Shown: positions 6,393 to 59,630 of the stretch, one piece after another
How the letters are laid out: every line of letters begins with the position of its first letter
How positions within the stretch are numbered: position 1 is the first letter of the stretch
DNA from: a virus
Virus record (IMG/VR): IMGVR_UViG_3300048597_000624
Location: 21,225-85,224 of that record
Direction: 5' to 3' (one strand)
DNA length: 64,000 nt
The notes under the pieces: model-generated
Told to the model about the DNA's origin: nothing
The model's database searches: none
The model's input: the letters and a program-made list of their open reading frames with translations, nothing else
Program-made: the position numbers and the translations under genes

Positions 6393-6650
6393 TCAAGCGC
6401 TGGTCGTGCTAGCGTCTTGAGCGGAAATAAAATCGGAGAGCTGCCGCACCAGGTGAGCCGGAATGCGGTCGAAATGCCGCTTCACGCCATCCGCGATCGC
6501 GTCAGCATCAGGACGATCTTGACACTCTGGGCAACGCCGAGCGCGGACGTCGAACCCCTGCATCGGTACTTTCTCTCCGCAGCCGGTGCAAATCCAACGA
6601 TGCTCGCGGTGCTTTTTCCCTGCACGCTCAGCCATCAGTCTCGAACCCAT
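6393..6650 (-). CDS. Zinc-ribbon protein
   Basis: CTGC...CPEC. Confidence 0.55.
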   Translation of the reverse strand: MGSRLMAERAGKKHREHRWICTGCGEKVPMQGFDVRARRCPECQDRPDADAIADGVKRHFDRIPAHLVRQLSDFISAQDASTTSA

Positions 6651-8071
6651 TCCCCGGTGCCATCCGCATGGGTCACGCGCGATACGCGAAAGCTACCGCA
6701 ATCCACGGTGGTCACCAAGGGCCAACCATGAACCTGCCTCGCTGGCACGAGCGGTTCGCCAACAATTCCTTCACAAGTGTCGTCCACTTCCTGCAGTAAC
6801 TTGGACAATGTGTCGAGCGTCGACGGTCGCGGTACTCCCTTGTCGACCGACAGTACGGGCGAATGGGAACCGCAGAGCAGAATCGCATGCCGCGCGTGCT
6901 CGCAGCCCTCGTCCGTCCAACTCCACTGATTGAGCGCCGCCGAGTCTTGGAACCAAGCTTTGCAGCCGCCCAGACGCAAACCCTTGCCGCGGCGACGATC
7001 AACCGCCACCGCGCCCCGCATGCACTCCAAATCGGCTGGCGTGTAAATCTTGACCGAACTGTACCCGCCCAGCGTGGCGCCCGTGCCGAAGGATTGCTTC
7101 ATTCGCGTGATGCGGTACAAGTCACCCGCTTGCATCCAGGCGTTGGCGGATCCGCCGACGGCGCCGGGAAACGCTTCGACCATGGCTTGATGCAAAAGCG
7201 ACTGGCACTCCTGGATGACCCGCTCTTTCATCACGTGATTCCACCGCCAGTAGCGAGGATCAGCGTCGTTCCACCGCATGACGGTCGCCAGGTCGGACTT
7301 GTCGAGTTGCATCCGCTCCTGAATCGGCAGCCAGCGCGGATCATCGAACACCACTTGCTGGATCCACTCCGATCCCTTCTGCCGGCACTCGTGAAGATTC
7401 CAAGCCTTAAACTCCCAGTCGATGTCGAACACCGTGGGGTAGGGGGTCCAGCGGGCGAGCTTGTTCAGCCGCGATCGCCAGCGAATGGGCATTTCTGAGA
7501 GCCAGCGCGGGTTGGGCCAGACGCCAAACTCGGGGGCAGCCATCGGCAGGTCCGCCGCAATGTGGAGGGAGCCGGTTGCGAGTTGATAGGCCCGGGCCTC
7601 AAGCGGTCGTCCTGCGAACAAATCAGCCGTTTCCTCCGGAGTGAGTCGTTTTAACCAGCCCGCGCGAGCGTTGCCGATCGAGGTTTCATCCCAGCCCAGG
7701 TTGATCGCCTGGACGAGATTGGGGTATTCGCCTTCCTTCACGGCACCATGGACGTGGCAAAGGCGGCGGCGCGCGACCGGCGCTGGACCATCGGCCCGCA
7801 ACAGTCGATCGAGGATCGATCCGGGCAGACGCGCGACCATCATGTTCGCACTGTCGAGCACCTTATCGTAAATCTGGTCGGCCGAAACGTCCTTGCCGAA
7901 GACGTCGCGGTCGGCGAGCAATTGCAGGAATCCCGCCGCGCGAAGGTTGTCCGGCCAGGTGAACGACTCAGGGACGCCCAGCCCGCGGCGAAGGTCGGCC
8001 GGCGAGAGCAGGGATAGCAGGTGGTCGAAAATGTGGCCGAGACTAATGGATGAAGCGGCGGAGGTGGTCAT
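6635..8071 (-). CDS. Hypothetical protein (Trp-rich, possibly carbohydrate-active)
   Basis: 478-aa ORF in operon; no confident motif. Confidence 0.7.
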   Translation of the reverse strand: MTTSAASSISLGHIFDHLLSLLSPADLRRGLGVPESFTWPDNLRAAGFLQLLADRDVFGKDVSADQIYDKVLDSANMMVARLPGSILDRLLRADGPAPVARRRLCHVHGAVKEGEYPNLVQAINLGWDETSIGNARAGWLKRLTPEETADLFAGRPLEARAYQLATGSLHIAADLPMAAPEFGVWPNPRWLSEMPIRWRSRLNKLARWTPYPTVFDIDWEFKAWNLHECRQKGSEWIQQVVFDDPRWLPIQERMQLDKSDLATVMRWNDADPRYWRWNHVMKERVIQECQSLLHQAMVEAFPGAVGGSANAWMQAGDLYRITRMKQSFGTGATLGGYSSVKIYTPADLECMRGAVAVDRRRGKGLRLGGCKAWFQDSAALNQWSWTDEGCEHARHAILLCGSHSPVLSVDKGVPRPSTLDTLSKLLQEVDDTCEGIVGEPLVPARQVHGWPLVTTVDCGSFRVSRVTHADGTGEWVRD

Positions 8072-8746: not shown

Positions 8747-9960
8747 TAGAGAGCCGCCAATCTTTCTTTGAGCAGTGCGGGCAGGAAGTAGCGATAGTGC
8801 TTGTCCGCCTCAGCGAACCGATACTTGCGCCGGAAGTATTCGTCGCCGGTGTCGTGGTCGCCGAAGATGAAACGTCGATGGCCGGGACGAATGACATGCT
8901 CCACGTTGTCGGCCAGGCCGTAGTAATTGACCGGGTGGAACTGATGCCAAGCGATCATCGTGGGGGTGTCGGTCGCTCCCGCCACGTGCTCGGGGCCGCT
9001 GTCGATGCCGATCATGTAGGCCGACTGCTGAATCATGGCTGCGATCTTCTCGCCATCACCCGTGCCGGTCCCACCCCAGAATGGATGTTTGACGTCGTTG
9101 ATGGCGATGCCATCTCGCTCCGACAACCGCGAGCGAGGTTTCGTCTCCCACTCCAGCACGAACGGGAGAAACCCAGCCCGCTTGGCGACAAGGCAGAGTT
9201 CTCGCGCGACGCGCTCGCTCATATCCTTGGCGTCTTTGGCAGAGTTGCCTTGGTAGTGGATGAGCACGATGGGGTATCGCTGTCCGGAAGCCACTCGCCG
9301 TCCGCACATTTCCGCCAGGTAATCGCTGGCCGACTCCATCACCTCATCGCTGATGCAAACGGCGTAGCGGCAGAGTTCCTCGATCGGTTCGATTTGGAAG
9401 GCATGACGCAGGTACTGTTCGGCCTTGGTCGATGGAGAGTTGGAATAAGTCTCCCACGGCTCGTGCCACGGAACCCAGCGATAGTCGGTGTAGCCTTCCG
9501 CTGACTTGTCCTCGGAGTAGACATGGCGAGCCAAGCCGCGAAAGAGCGTATGGGCTCCCACCTTGGACGAAACATCAATTGCCCATTCCGGGTGCAAGTG
9601 TCGCAGGTGGAGCAGTACCGTCGTGAACTGGACCGCATCGCCAAAGCCGTGCTCGAAGCGTGCCAGCAGCGTTGGCTGCTTGATCCAGGCTGCTAGGGGC
9701 CTAGGGATGGGTAGGGCCCAATTGAGCCAGGCTTGCCGCCACGGACATTTGCATCCGGGAGACTTCTTGATCCCAACGGCGTCCAGCGCGGCAGACACTA
9801 GATCTCCTGCGCCTTGAAATTCAAGCGGTACGTCGTCCAGAGACACGCTGTCGCAGGTTCGATTGATCTGGTCCGTCGAATACCCATGTGTTCGCGCAAT
9901 GAATCCGCATCGCCGACACGACGCTTCCCGGTCTGAGATTAGATAGAAATCGCAGCGCAT
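8746..9960 (-). CDS. Glycosyltransferase family 9 (heptosyltransferase-like) with Cys-rich N-terminus
   Basis: HGFGDAVQF and IGIDSGPEHVAGA(T)DTP motifs. Confidence 0.82.
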   Translation of the reverse strand: MRCDFYLISDREASCRRCGFIARTHGYSTDQINRTCDSVSLDDVPLEFQGAGDLVSAALDAVGIKKSPGCKCPWRQAWLNWALPIPRPLAAWIKQPTLLARFEHGFGDAVQFTTVLLHLRHLHPEWAIDVSSKVGAHTLFRGLARHVYSEDKSAEGYTDYRWVPWHEPWETYSNSPSTKAEQYLRHAFQIEPIEELCRYAVCISDEVMESASDYLAEMCGRRVASGQRYPIVLIHYQGNSAKDAKDMSERVARELCLVAKRAGFLPFVLEWETKPRSRLSERDGIAINDVKHPFWGGTGTGDGEKIAAMIQQSAYMIGIDSGPEHVAGATDTPTMIAWHQFHPVNYYGLADNVEHVIRPGHRRFIFGDHDTGDEYFRRKYRFAEADKHYRYFLPALLKERLAAL

Positions 9961-9963
9961 GAT

Positions 9964-10635
9964 TTACATCAACGTGAACACTTGAGCGGTCATGACGCCA
10001 TTGAAGTCGCAGAGGTCGGTTCCAAGAGGGTGACGCGCCCAGTTCTCATTGACCGTCTCGGACAAATTCATGCAATCAATCGGCTCGTCATAGGTATTAC
10101 TGACCGCAAAAAAATTATTAGGATGCGGAGCCGGGGAGCCGTGATTGCAACCAACACGGATTGCATAGAGAGTTGGGCTGAACTTTTGGAAGCACAGCGA
10201 GCATGCCGCGTTTGTGCATGTTCCTCCCGAGATCGACGTGCAGCATTGATTGGAAGTTGTTGCCGCGAAGTACCACACGCCGTTGTAGCTAAAGCAGCAG
10301 CTTGCCGGAGGGAACGCCAAGCCGATTCCGCTGATGACAACTTCGTATTCGACGGCCGCAACGCCGTCCTTGCAGGCATCGCACAACACAACGCTGCTGC
10401 CACTCAATCGACGTCGCCGCGTTGAAGTCGACGTGCTCCCAGGCGGCGGAGGCGGCGGCGGAACGTGTGTCGACGTCGAAGTACTCCCGCGATCGCGCGT
10501 GCTCGTGCTGCCCGGATCCATCCCGCAGCAGCGCGGCACCCCCGCCATCTCTAGCAGCGGAAGCGACATGGCGACGAACATCGTCAGCTTCCACACCCAA
10601 GATCGCTTCCACAGCATGCCGCGCGGAATAGACAT
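9964..10635 (-). CDS. Cys-rich putative tail-tip/adhesion protein
   Basis: Many Cys pairs and Ser/Thr/Pro linker; follows tail genes; start uncertain. Confidence 0.55.
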   Translation of the reverse strand: MSIPRGMLWKRSWVWKLTMFVAMSLPLLEMAGVPRCCGMDPGSTSTRDRGSTSTSTHVPPPPPPPGSTSTSTRRRRLSGSSVVLCDACKDGVAAVEYEVVISGIGLAFPPASCCFSYNGVWYFAATTSNQCCTSISGGTCTNAACSLCFQKFSPTLYAIRVGCNHGSPAPHPNNFFAVSNTYDEPIDCMNLSETVNENWARHPLGTDLCDFNGVMTAQVFTLM

Positions 10636-20891: not shown

Positions 20892-21941
20892 TCAGTCGCA
20901 GGCACCGGTGAACAAGAACCCAGTGACGGGAGCCGTCACGATGGTGTCGTAGTTCTCGGTGATGCGACCCTTGGTGCGGCGGTTGTCGGGGTCGTCCTTC
21001 GTCTCGATCGTCATCTCCTCTTTCATGAAGATGGTGATCGTCGAGAACGAGGGAGCGCCTTCCACACCAACCAGTCCGCCCGGTCGAGCGCACATGAACG
21101 GCGTTGTGTCAGGCAGCACGAAACCGCGGCTGGTGGTCGCACCCTTTTGCGTCGAAACGCGAACGGTCTTTTCGACCACAAGCGGGAAGCCATACAGCTT
21201 GTCCGGGAGTCCGAACATCGAATTGCCGCCGGCCAACTCGCCGCGGATTTGCGGGAGAGCGTCCGGGCTGCCCTTGATGTGGTCAACGATCTCTTGCGCG
21301 ACCGCCAGCTTGCGGGCCAAGCCCGGGCTGATGACGACAACCAAATCGTTGATGTCGATCGCGGCCAGCGTGTCCTTGAGGATCAACTCGGCCGCGTGAT
21401 TCAGCGACCGCTTGATCGACTGGGCCGCCGTGGTCGAGACGTCCCACTTGGTCGACACGCCGGTGATCGAACCGCCGGTCACAGCGCTCACGTGTGTCGA
21501 ATCGTAGTTGCCGGAGGTCGTCGCAGCGGTGATCGCTCGCAACGTGCGGGCGGTCATCATCCGTTGGGCGTGGATCCGGCTGTGGGCCGCGATGATGTCC
21601 CACGTCGCCTGTTCGGACGTCAAGTAGCCGATATTGAACCCGGTCGCGATGCGTTTCGCAGCGTAGGCCAGGTATTCGTGCGACTCGGTGCCGTCGTTGA
21701 AATCCGGCGACTCGTTTCCGTCCGGCCATTGCAGGTCGGCCAGATTGGAGTTGACCAGGCGGCCAGCCTGTTCGACCGTCATTTTCATGTAATAGCCGAC
21801 CATCTTGTCGACTGGGACGATTTGGGCGTATCGATTGACCGCGAAATCCTTAACATTCCGCGAGAAATCGACGACCATTTTTCCACTCGCTTCGTGCGAG
21901 GGGACGTAGGTGTTGTTTGCGCCTGGAAGTGTGGCTGCCAC
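20892..21941 (-). CDS. Major capsid protein
   Basis: 349 aa, follows protease/scaffold and decoration genes; GGAG SD plus GTG start. Confidence 0.8.
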   Translation of the reverse strand: MAATLPGANNTYVPSHEASGKMVVDFSRNVKDFAVNRYAQIVPVDKMVGYYMKMTVEQAGRLVNSNLADLQWPDGNESPDFNDGTESHEYLAYAAKRIATGFNIGYLTSEQATWDIIAAHSRIHAQRMMTARTLRAITAATTSGNYDSTHVSAVTGGSITGVSTKWDVSTTAAQSIKRSLNHAAELILKDTLAAIDINDLVVVISPGLARKLAVAQEIVDHIKGSPDALPQIRGELAGGNSMFGLPDKLYGFPLVVEKTVRVSTQKGATTSRGFVLPDTTPFMCARPGGLVGVEGAPSFSTITIFMKEEMTIETKDDPDNRRTKGRITENYDTIVTAPVTGFLFTGACD

Positions 21942-24523: not shown

Positions 24524-27500
24524 TCAGACCAGCCCTTTATCGCGCCAATACTGGAAGCACTTGGGGTAGTTCGCTTCGGCCTTTTCTCGATCGAGAAAAA
24601 GTAGCCGTCCAAACTCTGCCCAGCCTTCTTGGGCGTCGGTTTTAGCATACTTCGACAAGGGAGTGCTGGGCAAGTTAATCTCTTCCTGCCAATTTTTCTT
24701 CCACTCAGGCGTGTAATCGAAGTCGTGGCCGCCGATGGCATGAGCCAATTCGTGGGCATGCGTGCCGGCCGCGGTGATGTCCGAACCGGGATCTGCAGTT
24801 CCGACGCGCTCCCCTGTGTCTTCGCCTCCGTCCAGGCAAAGCGTTCCGTTGAGATCCTCATGCGTCGGCTTGCCTGTCGAACGGTAAATCGGGTAGGCAA
24901 AGAATCCCATCACGGTTGCTCCGCGCGGGATACGCGAACCGCGGCGGCGGGCCTCGGCTGTGACGCCGCTAACGCTCGGCTTCCACTGGACGCTGGAAAC
25001 GAACCGGTCGACACGTCGCAAGCACTCGCCATTCATGCCGTCGATCGCGCGCGAGATTGCCGCCCGGTAGGCTTGCTGCTTGTCCTTGGAGAGCCGCTTA
25101 AGCTGCTCCGGCATGTCTTTGAGAAGCTTGGCGCGAACCGACTCGCGCGCGGCGTGTAATTCGCTTTCCGCAGAATCGTCGGCGGTGGATTCCTTCGCGG
25201 CAGCCGCCGGCGTCGAACTCGATTCGCTGCTGCTGCTACCGCTGCCGGCGCTCTCCTTCTCGACGAACTTCCCTTCATCGTCGCGCGGATGCTTGGACTC
25301 GAAATCAAGGCCCTTTTGCGTCCCGCTGTTGGCCTGCGGATCGTCGTCGAACAGTCGCGTTTGACGAGCATACTTCCGCAAGAATCGGCGCGTGCGGGCA
25401 AACGGCACCGACTCGATTGCGTCATCCCGCGCCGGAACATACTTGCCGGCCTGATGAGCCAGATCGACCGCTTCCGATAAAACTTCGTTCGACCAGCGCG
25501 CGGGCGGCTCGATTCGGCCTTCGCCGAGCATGTCCCACACTCGTTCGCCGAGATCTTCGGAGTATCCTTCCGCGTGGTTACCCAGGCCGAGTTCCGGCAG
25601 CGAGGCGGCAACCGACGTCGCCTTGACGTCGAACCCAGGAATTGCCGTGTAGTCCTTGCCGGCGTTCGACAGCCGCGCGAAGTCGTTGCGGGTGAGCCCC
25701 ATGATCTCGCGCAACTGCATCTTGGCGTGCTCGCGGTCCGTGATGGCTTGCCGCTTCTCTTCCCAGACGAAGTCGACAGCATCGCGCAGAGTAGCGGCAT
25801 CGAGGTTGTGCTCTTCGGCCAATGCGGAGATTGCTTGGCCCAATCGGCCTTCGGACGTTCGCTTGGGCTTGGGCTGTTTTGCCGGTTGCTGCTGCGACTG
25901 GGGCTGAGACTTGGGCTCACCACCTGGTGGCAGTCCGGCGGCCGACTCGAGTTCGCGGACCGACGCCTCTTGCTTGGGCAGCAGTTCGTCCGGTGGGTTC
26001 TGTCCGGCTTGTCGCCATGCGCGGCGAATCGCCTCTTTCGACTGCTCCAGTTCCGCTCGCGCGCGACGGGCGGCGTCGGCCTTGGCGGGATCTGGCTGCG
26101 TTGGTGCATCGATTTCGGTTTCAACAGGGGATTCCATCTGCTCGCCCGTCTCGGGCTGCTCCTGCGGCGTCGGCTCCTCATCGCCAACCATGTCGATGTC
26201 ATCCCAGGCGTCGGGATAGCCTTCGTGGTCGTCGTCCTCCCGGTGCGGAGTGGCATGACCCGGGGCGTCCACAATGCCGACGCGATGCCCGCGGTTGACC
26301 AGCGTATTGAGGTGGCCCTCTAAATCCGCCTGCTTGATGACCGCATGCTTCCCGTTGCCCAATTCGAGGTGCTCATTGAGTCGAGCGGCGCCAGCACCGA
26401 AGGCGTGATAGTCACCGTTTTCGTTGACCAGCAAAATCGTTCCCGCGGGGGCCATCTCGAGGGCGCGATCGTGGGCCTCCCGCAACACGCTGTCGCGATG
26501 ATCTTCGTGGGCGTCTTGCTTGCGGGCTCGCCGTGCGCGAGATTCGTCCGATTCGTCGCGCAGGTCGTCAACGTCTTCGCCCTCCAGGCCCGGGCAGCCG
26601 GCGTGAATGTGGCCATCTTCGCCGACGAGGGCAGGGGCGCCGCCGACGGTTTTCCACTGGGCACCCTTGGGCTCTGGATCGGGCTCAGCGCGGTAGACGC
26701 GGCGACCTTCTTTGTTTCGACGATGTTTGAGCTTTTCGGGCAAATCTTCGGCAAGCTTCTCGATTTGCTGTCGGAGATCGGGTGGTGTTGTCGCGTCGTC
26801 GAGCTTGGCAAGGCTATCGAGGCTTAGCCACCAGTGATAGTCGTGCTCCTTGGGGTTGGTGTCGACGTTTGACGACGAACCGGCGGCCACTTGCGCCCGA
26901 TACATGACCCCAGATTTGCCGTTGCGAGTTTCAAACGGAACCTCCCCTGGAAGAAACTCGATCGATAACCCCGTTTCCTCTTCCACTTCGCGCGCGGCGG
27001 CCTTGCGCGGATCCTCGCCGTCACGACGATGGCCGGCAGGGCACTCCCATTCGCCCGTGCGGGTGCTGGCTTCCGATCGGCGGACCAGCAAAACCTTGCC
27101 GTCGTGGATGATGGCTGTGGCGACGATGTCCGGATCGTCATCCTCCACGATGATCGACTCGGCATCGTCACGCTTGGCATACTGCCGCGGCGTCGCTCCA
27201 CCTGCGGGCCCGTACATGCGAAGCTGCAATCCGCCATCGGCGGCGGCTGCCTTCTGCTTGTCGCCTTCAGGCCCATCGTCATCCGGTTTATCCGGATCAT
27301 CATCGGGGTCGTCGTCCACCTCGGGTCCGTCTTCGCCCGGTCCCTCATCATCGTCGCCGCCGGCCAGTGGATTCTGCGGAAACGCCACGGTCGAGCGAGA
27401 GCCAGGCAGGTTGTCGCCCGGCTGGCCCGGCTGCCCCGGTTGTTGGCCCGGCATGCCCGGCAATCCCAGCCCCATTCCGGCGCCCTGCGAGAACGTGGGG

Positions 27501-28978
27501 TTCTGTAGCGCCTCTTCGCCGTCGGTCGGGATCGACGAACCAATCATGCCCGCGACTTCAGCCGGCTTGAGCTTCAACCCCATCTCCCAAGCCATCTGGT
27601 ACGCCTGGAGCTTCTTCTCCACCTCGGGCGATTCGGTGTCGATTACGAATCGCACATAGACCCGCTGCGAGCCGGGGAAGTTGAACAGCTTGAGCGGCTC
27701 GACAAAGTCCGTCGTTAGCGACTCTTCGAGGTTCGTCGCGTCATAGCGAATTATTTGATTAAACGTTTCGAGGTGCAGATCCGCCACGCCACTGCCCAGG
27801 CCGGTCGCTTCGGACTCACTCGACAGGATTTGGCCCAGGATGTATCGCTTGATCTGGTGGCCAAACAGGTCATGCACGATCGACTTGAGCGACTCGACGC
27901 CGGCCGCGTTGGGCTCGATGCGATCGATTCCGTACTGCGATTTCTCTTCGCCCTCGGGGATCGGCACCAGAATGTTATTGTTCTGGTGGGACTCCATTGC
28001 CGCCGCTTCGGCCTTTTCTTTCCCCTCGGGGTTCCCCAGCGGGTAGTACCAGATTGTGAAGCCTTGTCCCACGCGCTCGAGATATTCGACCAGCATCGCG
28101 AGGGCTTCTTGTTTCTGATACCACGCCCAGTAGATGCGCGAGCGCACGCCGACGCCATGAATCGCACCGGCGTCAATTGGCGATTCGTAGGCCGCGTCTT
28201 CAACCATGTGCTTGTGCAGCACGATCGCGCGACGTTCCCAATCCTCCAGGAAATACCCCATGCCCTGATCGGTCGCGACCACCTTGTGCGGTCCGACCAG
28301 GTCGCCGGGCTTGAAGTTTCCCGCCACGCGGATGCCGATTTGGTCTGGATCCCAGCCCTCTTCGTTCACTCCGGGGATATCTTGGCGAAAGAGCAGCTTG
28401 TCGCCGTTGATCGGGCGCCACTTGCGAACGATCAGCCGTTGCTGGCCGTGGACGTAGTCCCAGTTGAACAGGTTGTTGATCGCGGATCGTCCGAACCAAA
28501 CCGCTTCCTGCAGCGAGCGGCGATACTCCACGAACCGCGAGGTCCGGCGAATGATCGCGGTGAGGTCGTCGACGAGCTTCTTTTGCAGCGGGGAATTCTC
28601 GTCTTCCGCCTCGAGGTGCCAATTGAGCAGCGCCACGCAACGCTGGCGAGCCTCCAGGCACTCCATCACCGTGCAATCGTTGCGCATGTACCGCGCGTTG
28701 TCTTTCGAGTGGCGGTAGGCTTCGTCCGGATTGCGGTAGACCTTGGCGAGGTTGGAAATCAAACCCTGGAACGTCATCACGTGCGGCATCACCGGCATGC
28801 CGAAGCCGGGAGGGGCTCCCTTGATGCCGCGCGCAGGATCGTGCGACTTCACGTTGGGCGGGCTGGCCTGGCCGTTTGCGTGGCCATTGGTGGACGGCTT
28901 GGGCGGGCGCGGCGTGCGGGCAACCAGCGGGCGGGCGTTGTCGGGCAGGTTGCCGCGAGAGGGGAGGGGAGCGGCCAT
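24524..28978 (-). CDS. Portal protein (DUF935/Mu gp29-like) fused to Nudix hydrolase, MutS_I-like and zincin metallopeptidase domains
   Basis: N-terminal EAVWFGRS..ILGQILSS..GLGSG.ADLH portal motifs; Nudix box GHRRDGEDPRKAAAREVEEETG; ILLV..GDYHAFG..A..L..LVNRGHRVGIVD; HELAH...SKYA.TD..EGWAE. Confidence 0.85.
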   Translation of the reverse strand: MAAPLPSRGNLPDNARPLVARTPRPPKPSTNGHANGQASPPNVKSHDPARGIKGAPPGFGMPVMPHVMTFQGLISNLAKVYRNPDEAYRHSKDNARYMRNDCTVMECLEARQRCVALLNWHLEAEDENSPLQKKLVDDLTAIIRRTSRFVEYRRSLQEAVWFGRSAINNLFNWDYVHGQQRLIVRKWRPINGDKLLFRQDIPGVNEEGWDPDQIGIRVAGNFKPGDLVGPHKVVATDQGMGYFLEDWERRAIVLHKHMVEDAAYESPIDAGAIHGVGVRSRIYWAWYQKQEALAMLVEYLERVGQGFTIWYYPLGNPEGKEKAEAAAMESHQNNNILVPIPEGEEKSQYGIDRIEPNAAGVESLKSIVHDLFGHQIKRYILGQILSSESEATGLGSGVADLHLETFNQIIRYDATNLEESLTTDFVEPLKLFNFPGSQRVYVRFVIDTESPEVEKKLQAYQMAWEMGLKLKPAEVAGMIGSSIPTDGEEALQNPTFSQGAGMGLGLPGMPGQQPGQPGQPGDNLPGSRSTVAFPQNPLAGGDDDEGPGEDGPEVDDDPDDDPDKPDDDGPEGDKQKAAAADGGLQLRMYGPAGGATPRQYAKRDDAESIIVEDDDPDIVATAIIHDGKVLLVRRSEASTRTGEWECPAGHRRDGEDPRKAAAREVEEETGLSIEFLPGEVPFETRNGKSGVMYRAQVAAGSSSNVDTNPKEHDYHWWLSLDSLAKLDDATTPPDLRQQIEKLAEDLPEKLKHRRNKEGRRVYRAEPDPEPKGAQWKTVGGAPALVGEDGHIHAGCPGLEGEDVDDLRDESDESRARRARKQDAHEDHRDSVLREAHDRALEMAPAGTILLVNENGDYHAFGAGAARLNEHLELGNGKHAVIKQADLEGHLNTLVNRGHRVGIVDAPGHATPHREDDDHEGYPDAWDDIDMVGDEEPTPQEQPETGEQMESPVETEIDAPTQPDPAKADAARRARAELEQSKEAIRRAWRQAGQNPPDELLPKQEASVRELESAAGLPPGGEPKSQPQSQQQPAKQPKPKRTSEGRLGQAISALAEEHNLDAATLRDAVDFVWEEKRQAITDREHAKMQLREIMGLTRNDFARLSNAGKDYTAIPGFDVKATSVAASLPELGLGNHAEGYSEDLGERVWDMLGEGRIEPPARWSNEVLSEAVDLAHQAGKYVPARDDAIESVPFARTRRFLRKYARQTRLFDDDPQANSGTQKGLDFESKHPRDDEGKFVEKESAGSGSSSSESSSTPAAAAKESTADDSAESELHAARESVRAKLLKDMPEQLKRLSKDKQQAYRAAISRAIDGMNGECLRRVDRFVSSVQWKPSVSGVTAEARRRGSRIPRGATVMGFFAYPIYRSTGKPTHEDLNGTLCLDGGEDTGERVGTADPGSDITAAGTHAHELAHAIGGHDFDYTPEWKKNWQEEINLPSTPLSKYAKTDAQEGWAEFGRLLFLDREKAEANYPKCFQYWRDKGLV

Positions 28979-53269: not shown

Positions 53270-55042
53270 TTAGGCGGTTTGCAGCGGCGAATCGCAGTTC
53301 GCTCGTACCATGGCCTCTGCTAGTTGGGGTGGAACGCTGTTGCCAAGCCGGGCGACTTGGTTCGACTTGCTGCCAGTCAACAGGTAGGTGTCGGGGAATC
53401 CTTGGGCTCGCGCGAGTTCGCGCGGCGAGAGCATGCGCAGGCCGATGTCGGCAATGACACAAGGCCCAATATCCGGAACGTCGATGGCTATTGCCGGCTC
53501 GTGCCGGCCTGGGGCGACTTCAACCGTAACCAGGCCAAAGCGATGCTTGCCCGTTTGCGTGTGAAGTGGTTCATCGAGGGGCTGACCAATGGCCGTCCCG
53601 AAGTATTTGACGAGGAATGCGTACACCAGCCCGAACTTATTGCCTTGGCTGGTGATGGTTCCCAACGGCTCGCCCATCCCGTTCCATTGCTTCTCGCCGT
53701 GGTTGAAGCGGGCAAGGTAGGCGGAGGCAATGCCGAGAGCATGAGCCGCTCCCGCCGGCCTCGCTGCACCTGCGCCGGATGTCACAGTCGGCATCGGCTG
53801 TTCGACGCTAGCGCCGTTTGAATCGCCGCGGAATTTGACGAGATTGGCAGCCACAAGCCCGTGATGATCGACCGCGGTAACCGTTCCAATGGGCTTGTCG
53901 ATCGAATGCCCCACAACTCCGCCGTAGAACTTGGCCAGTGTGGCGGCCACCAGACCGAATCGATTCTGCGTGTCGAGCGTTGCAAATCCGCGATCAAGCG
54001 AATGGCAGCGAGACTCCCCGGCTTTTTGGCCGTGGTACTTACTCAGCACCGGAGCAACAACGCCAAACCCATGATGCCCGGTAACCGTCGAGAGCGGCTG
54101 ATCGATCGATTGGCCGCGAAAGTGGTCACCACCGTGATCGCAACGAACAATGAACGGTTGCGGATCGTTGAGCACGTACCGCCACAGGCCCATGGCAATC
54201 CGTCGCATGGTCTTGTCAGCCAGCGGGCGTTGACGATCGAAAATACTGGGACATGGCAGGGACCAGTCGATGCACTCCGCAGCCGTTCGCCAAGGCTTGA
54301 GCCGTGAGAACAACGGTTGATCGTCCAGCTTGGACGGATCCGCGTGCGATGCCTCTGGCCATTCGATCGGCCGACCGTCGCAGCGGGCAACTAAGAACAG
54401 TCGCCGGCGGTGGGTTGGGGCGCCGTAGTCTGCCGCGTCGAGCGTTTTGTAGGCGACTACATACCCCAGGTTTCGTAGTCGTCCCGTCCAGCGGCGGAAA
54501 GTCAAACCGCGGCGATTGGGATCCGGACGGTGTTCGTCTGTCTGAATGAGCCGAGACGCATTGCAGCGCGGGCAGCGTCGATGAACTCGAGCCAGCTTGG
54601 CCTGGCCCTCCGTCCCGCGCCAGTCGCAGGAGCGGCAGCGATAGACCGGCACAAGCGGGCCCCAGTCGGCGAACTCGCGCACGTTTTCGAGAACGATCAC
54701 ACGAGGCCGGACCTGCTCAGCCCAGCGACAGATAACCCACGCCAGTGATCGAATTTTCTTGCTGACCGGCTTCGAGCCCTTCGCCCGTGAAAAGTGCCGG
54801 CAGTCCGGCGATGCCCACAGCAGGTCAACCTTTCGGCGGCCAATGAGCGATCGCAGGTTCGCGCGCCAGACGTCCTCCAGCACGTGCCGAGTGTCGGGAT
54901 GGTTGGCCTCGTGCATCGCCAAGGCTGGGCCATCGTGGTTGACGGCAATGTCCGGCGATCGACCGAGCGCCCACGCAATCCCGAGCGATGCGCCACCGCC
55001 GCCGGCGAAGCTGTCGATGATGAGTCCTTGCTTCCTGCTCAT
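53270..55042 (-). CDS. DNA cytosine-C5 methyltransferase
   Basis: FAGGGG, SPDCRHFS, LENV, RRRLF, RELARAQGFP, GNSV; internal Zn ribbon and repeated P..T.T....GLV units. Confidence 0.92.
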   Translation of the reverse strand: MSRKQGLIIDSFAGGGGASLGIAWALGRSPDIAVNHDGPALAMHEANHPDTRHVLEDVWRANLRSLIGRRKVDLLWASPDCRHFSRAKGSKPVSKKIRSLAWVICRWAEQVRPRVIVLENVREFADWGPLVPVYRCRSCDWRGTEGQAKLARVHRRCPRCNASRLIQTDEHRPDPNRRGLTFRRWTGRLRNLGYVVAYKTLDAADYGAPTHRRRLFLVARCDGRPIEWPEASHADPSKLDDQPLFSRLKPWRTAAECIDWSLPCPSIFDRQRPLADKTMRRIAMGLWRYVLNDPQPFIVRCDHGGDHFRGQSIDQPLSTVTGHHGFGVVAPVLSKYHGQKAGESRCHSLDRGFATLDTQNRFGLVAATLAKFYGGVVGHSIDKPIGTVTAVDHHGLVAANLVKFRGDSNGASVEQPMPTVTSGAGAARPAGAAHALGIASAYLARFNHGEKQWNGMGEPLGTITSQGNKFGLVYAFLVKYFGTAIGQPLDEPLHTQTGKHRFGLVTVEVAPGRHEPAIAIDVPDIGPCVIADIGLRMLSPRELARAQGFPDTYLLTGSKSNQVARLGNSVPPQLAEAMVRANCDSPLQTA

Positions 55043-56421
55043 GCCGCCATCCTCAATTGCTCCGCCAAAAACGTCTTCCGCGACTCCAACGCACACCGCT
55101 GGCAGTCCTGATCGATCGTGGATTTCTTCCCGATCGTGAAGCACAACTGCTCGGTCCGGCTGATGGCCGTATAGATCAACTCGCGGCTCGCCACGAACCG
55201 GGCCCCGCCGTAGTCGTCCGATACGTAAATGACGATGGGCCAGCCGCAACCCTGCGATTTGTGCGTGGTAATCGCATAGGCCAGGTCAAAGTTGCTGATT
55301 TCGTCCCGCTCCGCCCGAATCGTCCGCCGCGGCGAATCCAGTTCGACGTAGATCGCTCCGGCATCAAGCTGGCGAACTACCCCGAGCTCGCCATTGGCAA
55401 CGAAGATTTCATCGCCGTCGACTTGCTCCCCCTCTGCCTCAAGCTTCTCCTGCTCGATGCGCAGGTACTCTTCGTCGATGCAGGTAAACCAGCCGTTCGA
55501 GGTGCAGAGAACCTTGTCCCCCTCGCGGAGCCGTGCCGCCGGCCCAGCCGCGACCGTCTTGCCGTTCGGGTTCAGCAGCGCCTGCAGCACGCGGTTCATC
55601 GCCGGCTGCGACAGTTCCGACTTGTCGACCTTGATGGCCGTCAGAACTTGCAGGTCGCGCCGGACGTCAAAATGCGACGGCAGGCCCGACAGTAATCGTT
55701 CAATGTGCCGGATGGTCCACTTGGGCCGCGTGCATTCCACGTGGCGGAGGTTTTCGCCGGTAGCCAGGTTGATTGCCTCACTGGGCGTGAATGGGACGCC
55801 CGCGCGAATCTGCTGGCACGCTTTGACGATGCGGCCCGCGTTGCGGCGAACCTCGGTCAGTTCCTCGCACGGGATGCCGGCCAGTCGCATATCGCGCAGG
55901 ACAGCGCCATGCTCGACCGGCGGGAGTTGCCCCTCGTCACCCAGGCAGAGCACGAGGGTGCCCGGCTTGATGGCTGAGAAGAGCGAATAGCCCAGCGTGG
56001 TGCCGAGCATCGAAAGTTCGTCGATCACCAGCACCTTGAACCGCAACGGGTTGCCGGCGTGATGCTTGAACCCCCAGCCCTTTTTGTCGTGGCCGTTTCG
56101 CGTGACTCGCAATGCCCGATGGATTGTGGTCCCTTCGAGCGAATAGAGGCCTTGCGACTGCATCGCTTCCGTGGTGCGGATGGCAGCCTTGCCCGTTGGC
56201 GCCACGATGCCGATTTCGTGCGAATAGAACTTTTTGGTGCACGCCTTGAGCAGGGCGGACATGGTGTAGGTTTTGCCCGTGCCAGGTCCGCCGGTGAGGA
56301 TGGCGAGACGGGAGCGCAAAAGGCGATCGAGGGCGTCCGATTGGTGTTTGGACAGGCTTTCGATGTCGAAGGTTTTGGGCCAGGTGGAGTGCAACTCATT
56401 GCTCCTCGGTTGATCGTTCAC
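55039..56421 (-). CDS. recD2: RecD2-like SF1B helicase, C-terminal (motor) half
   Basis: GGPGTGKT, APTGKAA, TIHRAL, DELSM, GDEGQLPPV, NGELG, YAITTHKSQG, YTAISR. Confidence 0.9.
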   Translation of the reverse strand: MNDQPRSNELHSTWPKTFDIESLSKHQSDALDRLLRSRLAILTGGPGTGKTYTMSALLKACTKKFYSHEIGIVAPTGKAAIRTTEAMQSQGLYSLEGTTIHRALRVTRNGHDKKGWGFKHHAGNPLRFKVLVIDELSMLGTTLGYSLFSAIKPGTLVLCLGDEGQLPPVEHGAVLRDMRLAGIPCEELTEVRRNAGRIVKACQQIRAGVPFTPSEAINLATGENLRHVECTRPKWTIRHIERLLSGLPSHFDVRRDLQVLTAIKVDKSELSQPAMNRVLQALLNPNGKTVAAGPAARLREGDKVLCTSNGWFTCIDEEYLRIEQEKLEAEGEQVDGDEIFVANGELGVVRQLDAGAIYVELDSPRRTIRAERDEISNFDLAYAITTHKSQGCGWPIVIYVSDDYGGARFVASRELIYTAISRTEQLCFTIGKKSTIDQDCQRCALESRKTFLAEQLRMAA

Positions 56422-56522
56422 TTATGCGATTACAAGTCTTCAGTAGGTCGATGCGTTCCATCTCCGCTCCTCGGTTGGTAGCTTTCACACGCGAAACCTC
56501 AACAACTCTTTGCCACTCTGGA

Positions 56523-57110
56523 CCTCAGTAACTTCCACACGTGAAGCATCCCGGTAGCAAACAAACGCCCGACATCCCTCAGTAAATTCCACATGCAGGA
56601 TGGTCGCGAGCTGGTCAGGCAAGGCGTGCTCCTCCTCCCTCAGATCGCACCTCAGTAAATTCCATATGTGAAAACAACGTAAGGCGCCGACGTCCTCGAC
56701 ATACTCATGCTCGCGCTCTCGCCCTCAGTAACTTCCGCATGTGAAAACAACCGAAGGCGATCAGCACGCGAGAGATTGCCAGTTTCCTTGACACCCTCAG
56801 TAACGTTCGCATGTGAAAACAACCGAAGGACGGTGGTCGCCATGGCTTTTCTCCCAGTCCAGTAACCCCTCAGTAACGTTCGCATGTGAAAACAACCGAA
56901 GGGTCGGCGTCTGACCTTGGCATCCGCGTAATCAGATTCCCTCAGTAAATTTCGCATGTGAAAACAACCGAAGGGCAGATGTCCACCGCAGAAAAACTCG
57001 TCCCTCAGTCTCATTCGCATGTGAAAACAACCGAAGGCGGACTTTGACTCAATCGTTCCAAAACTCGGGGCACGACCTCAGTCTCTTTCGCATGTGAAAA
57101 CAACCGAAGG
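56523..57110 (-). CRISPR. CRISPR array: 7 clear 35-bp repeats plus 2 degenerate distal repeats
   Basis: Repeats start at 56650, 56723, 56795, 56868, 56940, 57003, 57076 (plus strand CCTCAGTnnnnTTCGCATGTGAAAACAACCGAAGG); unique spacers of 38, 37, 38, 37, 28, 38 nt; decayed copies at 56577 and 56523. Confidence 0.95.
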
Positions 57111-57239
57111 GGCGGCTGCACAAGTGCAAATATCCCTTCCGCTTAAACCGCGTTCCGCGAGCGTTCGTTGCCGGCAAGCGTACAACGCCTTTCCCGCGCT
57201 CGGCCTGGAGGTGGCCTGTTTGTTCCAACTCATATCGCA
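57111..57239 (-). promoter_or_regulatory. CRISPR leader or RNA scaffold region
   Basis: 129-nt gap between effector stop and first repeat with GAGCG...CGCTC inverted repeat; repeats decay away from this end. Confidence 0.5.
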
Positions 57240-58505
57240 TCACTCCTTTACGTCCTGTGCGAGCGGTTCCGGCGATTCGCTCGCCACCTCGCCGCTCGCA
57301 ACGATCAGTTCAATTCCGCAGTCCTCGCAAGCCTTGGCTAAAGCCAGCCGCAAACGAGTCCAATCCAACACGCAATACAATTTGTTTGAATCGTCGTAAC
57401 GAATCGCTGCCATCCGTCGTCGCTGGGCGTACTTCGCCAACTGCATCGCGCACTGCTGAAACCAGCTATTGATGCGGCGATGATGCTTGGTGACCATTGC
57501 CGCACGTCGCGACTGAAAAGACGCAACTGGTCGCTGCTCGGCCGTTGCGTCTTCGCTCAGTCGGTGCAGCCGCTGCCCATGCTCAGCTTGAGCGCGGCGA
57601 ATGTGATCTGCGTTCAATACCCAAATCTGCTCGTCTTTCTCATTCAGTGCCCGCCAGAGCGATTCGGGACCAGTGGAAACCCGCAGAACGTCCGACGCGG
57701 CAGCCCTTTCAACTCGCGGAAGCCAGCAGGCAATTTTCAACATGACTTCGCTGGATGACTTTTGGCCTCCGCTGTCGCGTCCGCTATCGCCGGCGCGGTG
57801 GGTGTTGGTTCCGGACGACACGCGATAAATCGACACTTCGCCAAGTTCGGCCTCCCCCTTAACCAGCTTGTCAAAGGCGGCAATCTGCCGGCGGTAGCGG
57901 TGCCCTCCCCGCAACCGAAGCGACCATCGTTCCGTGCCGAACGGCAGCGACACAATCGCTTCTCCACCTTCGCCGCGAGAGAGCTTCACGGTGGCAGCGG
58001 GGACGGGATAAGGCACTGGATACTTAAAGTTTTGAATTGACCGATCGCAGGTCCAAAGAACCTTATATCGATCCGATCGGTATTTTCTCTGTGTTTGCTG
58101 TTCAAGACTGGCAACTGTGCTGCTGGACAGGTCCGGAAATCGCGTTCTTGCTTCGGGGTATAAGTACACCCGCTCCATGGCTGGCATCTTTTCCTGGCTC
58201 GGCACTCTCTGGGTATCGCGAGCCCACAATTGGGACATCATCCAATTCGATGCCGCCGTTGTCTGCGACCACGCGGTTCGCAGTGCAGCCCGGAATTCCT
58301 CCCAGCTACGATCGACAGGACCGGAAACCGCAAACGTCACAGCGCGAAGCACGTAGCGATTACGCCAGCACTTGTCGCAAAACACGGAGTCGCCTTGCCG
58401 CTTCCAGCCGCTTGGAACCCTCGCCGTTCCGCGAGCCGTGACTTTCGTGTCGCGACCAGCGCCACACGAGCAGCACAGGACGGTTTGCTTCGTTGCTGTC
58501 GTCAT
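57240..58505 (-). CDS. Cas12f/TnpB-like type V effector, predicted nuclease-dead, with N-terminal zinc ribbon
   Basis: Colinear with AsCas12f1 as recalled (PVDRSWEEF..LR vs PLDLDWKEF..LR; DRSIQNFK vs DMSIPSYK; KACEDCGIELI vs KAEEAGIKVI); RuvC-I GIDLG replaced by RVSTG; ends before Zn finger/RuvC-III; adjacent to array. Confidence 0.8.
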   Translation of the reverse strand: MTTATKQTVLCCSCGAGRDTKVTARGTARVPSGWKRQGDSVFCDKCWRNRYVLRAVTFAVSGPVDRSWEEFRAALRTAWSQTTAASNWMMSQLWARDTQRVPSQEKMPAMERVYLYPEARTRFPDLSSSTVASLEQQTQRKYRSDRYKVLWTCDRSIQNFKYPVPYPVPAATVKLSRGEGGEAIVSLPFGTERWSLRLRGGHRYRRQIAAFDKLVKGEAELGEVSIYRVSSGTNTHRAGDSGRDSGGQKSSSEVMLKIACWLPRVERAAASDVLRVSTGPESLWRALNEKDEQIWVLNADHIRRAQAEHGQRLHRLSEDATAEQRPVASFQSRRAAMVTKHHRRINSWFQQCAMQLAKYAQRRRMAAIRYDDSNKLYCVLDWTRLRLALAKACEDCGIELIVASGEVASESPEPLAQDVKE

Positions 58506-58735
58506 TGCATGATCCGTTTTGAACTGCGCCGAAACTCGTTCACGTAACCGCCCGACCGCTCCACTTCCCGCTTCCGCCTCAGCACCTCATCCCCATCTTC
58601 AGATTGCAGCAACACCAAGTTCTCCTCCGACCGCTCGCCTATTCGGATCGTCGAGGGCCAAAATCGGAGCACCCAGATAGGTCGCGTCCGATCGAATACC
58701 TTGCTCTCGCAGGCACGCTTTGTTGCACTCGACAT
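58502..58735 (-). CDS. Small hypothetical protein coupled to the Cas12f-like gene
   Basis: 77 aa; stop overlaps effector ATG (ATGA); AGGGAG upstream. Confidence 0.5.
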   Translation of the reverse strand: MSSATKRACESKVFDRTRPIWVLRFWPSTIRIGERSEENLVLLQSEDGDEVLRRKREVERSGGYVNEFRRSSKRIMQ

Positions 58736-59630
58736 CCATCAACTCCCTTAAATGTCCCGCGAGCCACACCTCGTGATTCGCCTTCTCTCCCTCGGCCAGC
58801 CAAGCAACTCCGGCCTCATCCTCAAACCGCGCGAGCCAGCCCGAGCGAATGCCGAGCTTGATCGCCTTGGCCGCATCCGGCACGGTCCCGCCGATCATCT
58901 CGCCCAGTTTGCGGACCAGATCGCTTTCGCGTAGCCAAGTGCTGTTGCTGTCTTCCCGCAACAAATGCCAAATGCAGATCGTCTGCCGCTTCAAGGCATC
59001 CTGCGGCAGCCCCAGGTCGCAATACAGCGAGTCGCAGCGGGCGAATCCGCAGCTTGCAAACCCTTCGACCAGCAAGCACAGCGGATCGCGTTTGATTCGC
59101 TGAGGTGCCAGGATTCCGTACTTCCGGATGACGTCGTCGACCAGCCGGCCATGGAAGCCACGGCCGTGGAACAACGTTGCCAATTCCTGCCGGACGTCCT
59201 CGGTGAGCTTCATGGCCTGGAGCGATTGAGAAGCCGCCCGGGCGCGATCGCGCGTCAATCCCTTGATGGTCTCCGCGACGAGTTCCCAATTGCCGCGCAG
59301 TTCCTTGACCGCATCGGTGCCGTAAACGTCAAACAGCCGGTTGGCGATTGCGGGGCCGATGTTGGTTGCGAACTTGCTGAGGTAGGTCACCACGCCCACG
59401 CGAGTGTGGGGCTCTTGCAGCTTGTATTGCTCGAAGACGAACTGATCCTTCCCCTTGCGGACCTTCCACTTGCCGTAGAACCGATAGGTCATGCGCGGCA
59501 CGAACGATGCAACTGGGGCATCGCCGCACACGATCTTGCCGTCCACAAGTTCGGCAACGATGAAATCCGAATCTTCCGATCGGAAGAAGATCGCTTTCAC
59601 GGTGCCGGTGAGTTCTTCGGAGTCAGCCAT
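58599..59630 (-). CDS. recD2: RecD2-like helicase, N-terminal (OB/HhH) half
   Basis: LTGTVKAIFFRSEDSDFIVAEL, YLS...NIGPAIANRLFDVYG, IKGL, KYG...IKRDPLCL...GFARCD. Confidence 0.8.
   Translation of the reverse strand: MADSEELTGTVKAIFFRSEDSDFIVAELVDGKIVCGDAPVASFVPRMTYRFYGKWKVRKGKDQFVFEQYKLQEPHTRVGVVTYLSKFATNIGPAIANRLFDVYGTDAVKELRGNWELVAETIKGLTRDRARAASQSLQAMKLTEDVRQELATLFHGRGFHGRLVDDVIRKYGILAPQRIKRDPLCLLVEGFASCGFARCDSLYCDLGLPQDALKRQTICIWHLLREDSNSTWLRESDLVRKLGEMIGGTVPDAAKAIKLGIRSGWLARFEDEAGVAWLAEGEKANHEVWLAGHLRELMDVECNKACLREQGIRSDATYLGAPILALDDPNRRAVGGELGVAAI

Follow-up and report, generated by a model that had tools for sequence, protein, structure and literature searches.

Natural Cas12f proteins that are nuclease-dead and truncated at the C-terminus have been published, including a cluster associated with CRISPR arrays (Hoffmann 2026, PMC13472631). 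In the accessible part of that paper the characterised cases of such a dead Cas12f (dCas12f) are activators coupled to sigmaE, with the Fta dCas12f recruiting the sigma factor, and the array-associated members carry guides against efflux promoters. The accessible text of Altae-Tran 2023 (PMC10691335) surveys large inactivated branches of Cas12f and V-U, documents rearranged RuvC sites in TnpB and Cas12 and proposes a path by which Cas12f arrays gave rise to fused guide RNAs. Here we describe a related locus in the IMG/VR virus record IMGVR_UViG_3300048597_000624. The window, which is the whole stretch of 64,000 nucleotides (nt) analyzed (positions 21,225 to 85,224 of this record), contains a cassette with a gene for a Cas12f-like protein of 421 amino acids (aa), a scaffold RNA and a CRISPR-like array, inserted into a recD2 gene of a prophage.

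Our preferred explanation, to which we assign a probability of about 0.72, is that this 2.34-kb cassette is a self-contained nuclease-dead system of the V-F-like type, which binds its target DNA, leaves it uncut and stands in the way of transcription or replication. The fold, the profile, the conservation of the protein and the anatomy of the guide RNA give good support to a dead Cas12f-like RNA-guided binder, and a silencing role is inferred. In the proposed mechanism the gene, the scaffold and the array would be transcribed in one direction. The scaffold together with the repeat hairpin would load a guide located 3' of them onto the protein, which is probably a dimer as in Cas12f, and the complex would bind complementary double-stranded DNA and act as a block to transcription or replication while leaving the DNA intact.

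The 421-aa protein is encoded on the minus strand at 57240..58505, an assignment based on the list of open reading frames (ORFs), a sequence profile and the predicted fold; neither Pfam nor NCBIfam contains a family for it. With the AF2 model (pLDDT 92.8, pTM 0.77) as query, Foldseek placed Cas12f structures at the top (AsCas12f, E 2.5e-19), followed by the natural dCas12f (E 1.9e-14), with TnpB (about 1e-9), Cas12k (about 1e-8) and Cas12m ranking below Cas12f. Structural comparison using VIA yielded a Z score of 22.7 for AsCas12f 8j12_B (rmsd, the root-mean-square deviation, 5.6 over 315 aligned residues, model residues 52-407 against chain residues 1-367) and of 18.5 for dCas12f 9n9c_A (rmsd 15.4, 320 aligned residues, model 45-403 against 1-365, which is the whole chain); TnpB, Cas12k and Cas12m reached 12-13 (TnpB 12.9). 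A profile built from 57 relatives of the protein was used for searches against PDB chains and protein clusters. Among the PDB chains it matched OsCas12f 9nzq (E 1.1e-7), SpCas12f1 9i8y (E 1.5e-6), the 'nuclease-deactivated Cas12f' 9n9c (E 4.3e-6) and AsCas12f (E 1e-5). The likeness to Cas12f, which an earlier reading of the letters alone (the original prediction) had proposed from an alignment by eye, was thereby supported.

The same prediction had reported RVSTG in place of RuvC-I and RYDD in place of RuvC-II, and both motifs were recovered at these sites: HMMER aligned LRVSTG (residue 274) to the RuvC-I motif LGVDMG of OsCas12f and IRYDD (residue 368) to its RuvC-II motif IQMED. At the RuvC-I column the 57 relatives have Arg in 43 cases, Lys in 5 and Ser in 2, and none has Asp or Glu; the window protein has Ser. 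The column of the RuvC-II Glu contains Asp in 48 of the 57 relatives and the next position Asp in 55, and D300, D319 and E323 are nearly invariant. As also predicted, the chain stops early, at a point that corresponds to residue 367 of AsCas12f, and lacks the TNB zinc finger and RuvC-III. This truncation point coincides with the last residue of the solved natural Fta dCas12f. Matches to Cas12f1-like_TNB stayed below threshold in six of the 57 relatives, and the window protein gave none. By the usual criteria, applied to the sequence, the RuvC nuclease is dead. At the other end, the Cas12f body is extended by residues 1-51, model residue 52 being aligned to AsCas12f residue 1. The predicted CxxC...CxxC zinc ribbon lies in this part; 54-56 of the 57 relatives retain its cysteines C11, C14, C43 and C46, and the ribbon could be a docking module. 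The ORF in the window is intact, and its product retains every invariant and nearly invariant residue of the family.

The gap between the stop codon and the first repeat measures 129 nt (57239-57111), as described before, and the scaffold RNA within it had been overlooked. This gap is conserved at nearly every one of the loci compared, which comprise the window, nine further loci from IMG/VR and 12 loci from GTDB species genomes, mostly metagenome-assembled genomes (MAGs) of Acidobacteriota; they are numbered with an L below. The scaffold, a tracr/omega-like RNA located on the minus strand at 57111..57216, was defined by alignment, covariation and a covariance model, and Rfam has no family for the region. 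It has a length of about 105 nt and leads directly into the first repeat, without a separate anti-repeat tracrRNA. In an alignment of 20 copies RNAalifold found 21 pairs, 20 of them with compensatory changes. A hand-written structure with seven helices was able to pair in 76.8% of the cells, compared with 59.1% after shuffling (0 of 500 shuffles as high) and 37-54% in slid controls, and 26 of its 30 pairs showed changes on both sides. This structure was partly derived from the window sequence, which favours it in the slid control and leaves the compensatory counts unaffected. Helices 4 and 6 contain many G-U pairs, consistent with an RNA on the gene strand. In helix 4 the segment just 5' of a conserved GGGATAT pairs with the five bases at the start of the repeat (89% paired, double changes in five of six pairs) and thus forms a short anti-repeat.

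Using the covariance model, the element was detected downstream of the gene and on the gene strand at all 22 loci. For the 19 loci used for training this match is given by construction; L008, L021, L022 and two extra copies at L015 are independent. The match in the window (57069-57231, minus strand) scores 122.7 bits, which is mid-range for the family. The ten loci with a scaffold, one repeat and one guide fix the order as scaffold, repeat, guide. The MAG locus L015 contains four scaffold copies around one gene (6501-6691, 9235-9423, 9489-9651 and 9802-10001), one of them upstream of the gene; it resembles an array made up of complete guide RNAs instead of repeats.

The array (56649..57110, minus strand) was located by a repeat search and consists of seven hairpin repeats of 36 nt with a period of 63-73 nt and of six spacers with lengths of 37, 27, 36, 37, 36 and 37 nt in this order. 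The 421-aa ORF and the uniqueness of all spacers are as originally stated, and the spacer lengths had to be corrected to 27-37 nt from 28-38 nt. The repeat folds into a hairpin with paired ends (-12.2 kcal/mol, z -3.5, equalled by 0 of 200 shuffles), and this hairpin can still be formed by all seven repeats. They represent six sequence variants, which differ mostly at positions 25-29. This heterogeneity argues against a recent uptake of spacers, as far as the sequence can tell. Past the array, the direct-repeat family includes two degenerate half repeats on the minus strand (56522..56598 in total, at 56598-56576 and 56545-56522), of which only the 3' halves are present. At the right edge of the cassette an inverted-repeat search revealed two units in which the 5' half of the repeat recurs in inverted orientation (56401..56496, minus strand). 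These units (56496-56466 and 56429-56401) comprise 20-28 nt, are 75-85% complementary and lie 65 nt apart; the second extends over the GTG at which the downstream recD2 half putatively starts. If they were part of one transcript, both would pair with every repeat.

Searches for targets gave results for relatives of the locus. Ten arrays were compared with the contig, record or genome that carries them, and three (L002, L012 and L014) gave perfect self-matches. Spacer 5 of L002 has a match of 39/39 nt on its own viral contig, 2.7 kb from the array and within codons 1-30 of a gene for an N6/N4 methylase, and spacer 1 of L012 matches with 37/37 nt an ORF on the same contig. At L014, spacer 3 (36/36 nt) has its match on another contig of the own MAG among ORFs of the MerR/HTH_17 (excisionase) type, and spacer 4 (35/35 nt) matches, also on another contig, the inside of an XRE-type helix-turn-helix (HTH) gene, which adjoins an ORF for a PD-(D/E)XK nuclease and an ORF with a sub-threshold match to an integrase N-terminal domain. 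MAG bins can mix strains, and the case of L014 is therefore weaker than the same-contig cases of L002 and L012. For L004, L005 and L015 the search covered the flanks of the locus. The coexistence of full-length matches with an array is what a non-cutting binder allows. The role of the system is probably in conflicts between mobile elements, in self-regulation or in both, because the guides of relatives point at other integrative elements and at genes of the carrier itself. The single-guide loci L013, L016 and L011 had no convincing target in their own MAGs, and the guide of L018 had none in the flanks of its locus.

For the window array the best non-self matches within the 85-kb provirus were at most 16 nt long (E >= 0.11), and no match was obtained in 50,697 phage records. 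Among 401 genomes of the phylum of genome G001 (Acidobacteriota) there was one match, of spacer 6 (25/26 nt, 27/37 overall), inside an ORF that we named by eye as an S41-type peptidase; its E value of 1.6e-4 per genome is about chance level over 401 genomes. In 401 genomes of the order of G001 (Acidobacteriota) no target was found. Spacer 1, which alone was scanned there as an exact pattern, had no hit in IMG/VR and the JGI metagenomes. The idea of an array-programmed silencing binder is therefore backed indirectly, by the perfect self-matches of relatives, with no target for the six spacers of the window, and the search for a protospacer adjacent motif (PAM) proposed along with it led to four protospacers in relatives without a common flank.

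The family is large. From 8000 candidates a word-index search retained 142 proteins at E<=1e-3; the best of them, apart from the protein itself, are 45-48% identical to it and similar in length. With E cut-offs of 1e-3, 1e-10 and 1e-30 the profile of the 57 relatives detected 1372, 1054 and 746 clusters (at 50% identity), respectively, all of similar length. A lone decaying pseudogene, which the original prediction had named as an outcome that would speak against it, is excluded by at least 746 clusters of the family, and the many homologues of similar length indicate that this Cas12f-like family is under selection and not decaying. One relative is located in a complete phage genome of 58 kb with terminal repeats. 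No homologue was present in the 50,697 records of cultured phages; plasmids gave faint matches, all to annotated TnpB genes (E 1e-3), and among 401 sampled genomes of the phylum a homologue occurred in the centre genome only. A neighbouring protein family common to the 22 loci was not found. Judged from the sequences, this distribution is typical of a mobile accessory module that occurs sporadically.

Arrays follow the scaffold in eight of the ten loci on viral contigs (the window and L002-L008); at L001 the contig breaks off, and L009 contains a single repeat. Among the 12 MAG loci arrays are present in three (L012, L014 and L015). On a tree of 20 proteins, from which L021 and L022 were left out as their genes are broken into pieces, array and single-guide states are interspersed, with at least three forced changes and labels that are no more clustered than after shuffling. 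These two states correspond to the pair of states in the path proposed by Altae-Tran, as given in the accessible text (PMC10691335). At the locus L026 (G005:C11:1-2098), in the same MAG as L014, a second copy of the array with 91% identity stands at the start of another contig. Four spacers are common to both, and their order differs at the start, which suggests a duplicated or strain-variant locus.

A wider reading combines these observations. Here the cassette would belong to a large uncultured family of array-programmed dead Cas12f systems with a natural single-guide-like scaffold, which phages and other mobile elements carry as a multiplex CRISPR interference (CRISPRi) cassette of about 2.3 kb; it would regulate the carrier's own genes and silence rival integrative elements, and chromosomal copies would have collapsed repeatedly to single-guide regulators. 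We put this forward tentatively and, in its full extent, are slightly more inclined to doubt than to accept it.

The first gene of the cassette is an ORF of 77 aa from the ORF list (58502..58735, minus strand). It begins 4 nt in from the left border of the cassette and shares 4 nt with the beginning of the 421-aa ORF. Its GC content at third codon positions is coding-like (0.68-0.70 in its frame versus 0.47-0.51 in the frame continuing from recD2). The ORF matches no family of Pfam or NCBIfam, and its sole relative in the databases is a 45-aa fragment with 86% identity. The role that had been suggested for this coupled ORF could not be sustained, since a homologue is missing at the 21 other loci and the only near-copy has 45 aa. 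A conserved partner gene was also considered and rejected, as no protein family is common to the neighbourhoods of the loci.

The absence of cas1 and cas2 from the window was verified and extended to the whole 85-kb provirus record, which contains no Cas1 or Cas2 above the cut-off. Cas1 was not detected in any of five viral records carrying relatives. In two of five host MAGs Cas1 is encoded elsewhere, and the one adjacent array that was read (G005) has an unrelated repeat; this finding neither supports nor excludes an acquisition of spacers in trans by a host system. The proposed supply of spacers by host Cas1-Cas2 is thus unsupported.

The cassette has a length of 2342 bp (58739-56398) and is located inside the prophage recD2 gene between two 6-bp direct repeats. 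Comparison of the junctions identified these as GAGTTG at 58740..58745 (left copy) and at 56392..56397 (right copy), both on the minus strand. The repeats could be a target-site duplication or could result from recombination at a microhomology; according to our own rough estimate, the chance of a 6-bp repeat within the junction tolerance is about 2-5%. The recD2 gene (window 55039-59630, minus strand) is interrupted exactly between its N-terminal OB/HHH region and its helicase core. Pfam assigned the domains OB_YrrC and HHH_RecD2 to the 5' part (58599..59630) and AAA_30, SH3_13 and UvrD_C_2 to the 3' part (55039..56421). An intact RecD2 homologue of 756 aa (P0261) spans both halves in the alignment: its residues 3-299 correspond to residues 4-299 of the upstream half, where homology stops at residue 299 and the final 44 codons run into the cassette, and its residues 305-735 correspond to residues 14-456 of the downstream half. 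The downstream half also matches the RecD2 structure 3e1s (E 7.8e-39). Removal of 58739-56392 in silico created an open frame of 747 codons, which aligns to P0261 in a single piece (3-735) with 44.9% identity. The downstream half may not be expressed; by eye there is no obvious ribosome-binding site in front of its GTG. A consensus scan identified no promoter, and terminators were not in excess.

Three other explanations were weighed against a DNA binder that silences by blocking. The first assumes that the system works through a recruited activity, which might be activation of transcription as with dCas12f and sigmaE, a nuclease or another partner acting in trans, or a recombination that moves the cassette. 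The Fta dCas12f, which is truncated at the same point, recruits a sigma factor according to the available text (PMC13472631). Moreover, the additional zinc ribbon could dock a partner, the direct repeats at the borders indicate that the cassette was moved at least once, and inverted units derived from the repeat are present at its right edge. However, the cassette consists of two ORFs and contains no sigma factor, transposase, Tn7-like gene, rpoE or HTH partner, the 77-aa ORF matches no family and the 22 loci have no neighbouring protein family in common. No guide or array tail matches the insertion site in recD2, and the known self-targets are within coding regions, where a roadblock fits better than activation of a promoter. 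Taken together, we regard recruitment as unlikely. A cutting type V system, in which a rearranged active site retains nuclease or nickase activity, is the least probable of the three. It would find precedents in the rearranged RuvC sites of TnpB and Cas12 (PMC10691335, accessible part) and could make use of the Asp residues at and next to the RuvC-II position (48/57 and 55/57) and of the nearly invariant D300, D319 and E323. Against this, at the RuvC-I position 48 of the 57 relatives have a basic residue and none an acidic one, the entire TNB and RuvC-III segment is gone, and the perfect full-length protospacers beside arrays in three genomes or contigs would be self-destructive for a cutter.

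Decay of the window copy after landing in recD2, which would leave an inactive relic, we judge to be very improbable. The heterogeneous repeats, the distal end with its half repeats and inverted fragments, the disrupted recD2 gene and the failure to find targets are consistent with a relic; the intact ORF with all invariant and nearly invariant family residues, the mid-range scaffold score of 122.7 bits and the hairpin formed by seven repeats argue against it. Several observations also weigh against silencing by a complex that binds DNA without cutting it. Two conserved acidic residues lie beside the former RuvC-II site, so that a non-canonical activity is conceivable, and guides 2 to 6 have no scaffold of their own. 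With six repeat variants and a decayed distal end, the window copy may be old. None of its six spacers has a target in the collections searched, self-matches were found neither in the window nor in L003, L006 (both complete phage genomes) and L007, and the 5' flanks of the four protospacers end with TTT, TTC, AGA and TGC and hence reveal no common PAM.

Among the described systems the dCas12f proteins of Hoffmann 2026 come close to the DNA-binding system proposed here. As far as the accessible text describes them, they share the Cas12f fold, the inactive RuvC, the same C-terminal cut and a guide located 3' of a structured scaffold. Furthermore, the relatives L013 and L018 follow a gene for an AcrB-type pump, and the guides of the published array-associated members target efflux promoters. 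The window cassette differs from the published loci by the absence of an operonic sigmaE (rpoE) or HTH partner, and its hosts are mostly Acidobacteriota and their phages whereas those in the accessible text are Bacteroidota. The window protein has an extra N-terminal zinc ribbon of about 50 aa and is combined with a multi-spacer array; its sequence similarity is remote (9n9c, profile E 4.3e-6), and the two were compared by fold and profile. In the two Bryobacterales MAG loci in question (L013:4863-7997 and L018:3837-6974) the single-guide gene stands directly after the pump gene, which in L013 is an AcrB-type RND gene by Pfam (E 1e-242), and the first 12 nt of both guides are identical.

The type V-F Cas12f proteins (AsCas12f 8j12, OsCas12f 9nzq and SpCas12f1 9i8y) are the best matches in fold and profile and resemble the system in their small size, an adjacent CRISPR array and a long structured helper RNA. 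In contrast to them, the window protein lacks the RuvC-I Asp, the TNB zinc finger and RuvC-III and thus an intact D-E-D triad, its scaffold continues in cis into the first repeat, in place of a separate tracrRNA, and an adaptation module is missing. TldR is likewise a prophage-borne nuclease-dead protein of the TnpB family and is thought to be an RNA-guided repressor (10.1101/2023.11.30.569447; PMC13418256, accessible parts). In these sources TldR has a single fixed guide of the omega type and is closer to TnpB, whereas the window has an array of seven repeats and a protein that matches Cas12f (Z 22.7) better than TnpB (Z 12.9); a single guide does occur in ten relatives.

Cas12m (V-M) and Cas12k (V-K) are also type V proteins found on mobile elements which, in the available text, bind DNA without cutting (PMC11656645). 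They are larger and match the fold less well (Z 12-13), and the Tn7-like genes tnsB, tnsC and tniQ that accompany Cas12k are absent from the window cassette. Cas12m is not known to need a scaffold RNA. Cas12r from Thermus Lalka phages is a phage-encoded compact type V protein without an adaptation module as well, and its spacers target integrative elements in parallel to the targets of L014 (bioRxiv 10.64898/2026.04.20.719267, accessible part). According to the same text, it differs by its size of 564 aa, by an interference that needs an active RuvC (abolished by D238A) and by not requiring a tracrRNA.

In view of the truncated dead Cas12f proteins and the array-associated cluster already in print (PMC13472631 and PMC10691335, as far as accessible), the designation 'undescribed subtype' in the original prediction was too strong, and the family may coincide with groups already listed in one of these papers. 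In open full texts we did not find the N-terminal zinc ribbon, the setting in Acidobacteriota and phages, the cis fusion of scaffold and first repeat that covariation shows here, phage genomes with spacers that match themselves or the carriage as a discrete cassette.

The record of 85 kb that includes the window is classed by IMG/VR as a provirus, and the gene call for the 421-aa protein is located on a contig of 730 kb. PHROG matches identified phage genes for portal, large terminase, primase and RecT within the window. An ORF of 1484 aa at 24524-28978 fuses a portal domain with a Nudix hydrolase domain, also by PHROG matches. Genes for DNA methyltransferases occur within a few kb at four loci (L002:5205-6714, L003:10915-12246, L012:12387-13352 and window 53270-55249), and one of those in L002 is the gene matched by its own spacer. 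As methylases are common in phages, this proximity could be a coincidence.

Nuclease-dead truncated Cas12f proteins, including an array-associated cluster, are already known from the accessible parts of Hoffmann 2026 and Altae-Tran 2023. New here are the covarying scaffold RNA, the size of the family, the mixture of array and single-guide loci, the self-matches and the cassette that splits recD2. The family displays array and single-guide states side by side, a transition that has been proposed, in the text available, for the origin of the dCas12f guide RNA. If our interpretation is true, the system would provide a compact scaffold for CRISPRi-type tools, and a phage-borne and array-bearing branch would be added to those relatives of Cas12f and TnpB which were turned into regulators of transcription. 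Guides would be shown to be directed against rival integrative elements as well as genes of the carrier. Soil bacteria would then have temperate phages with a very small programmable silencer, which consists of a protein of 421 aa and one scaffold with several guides.

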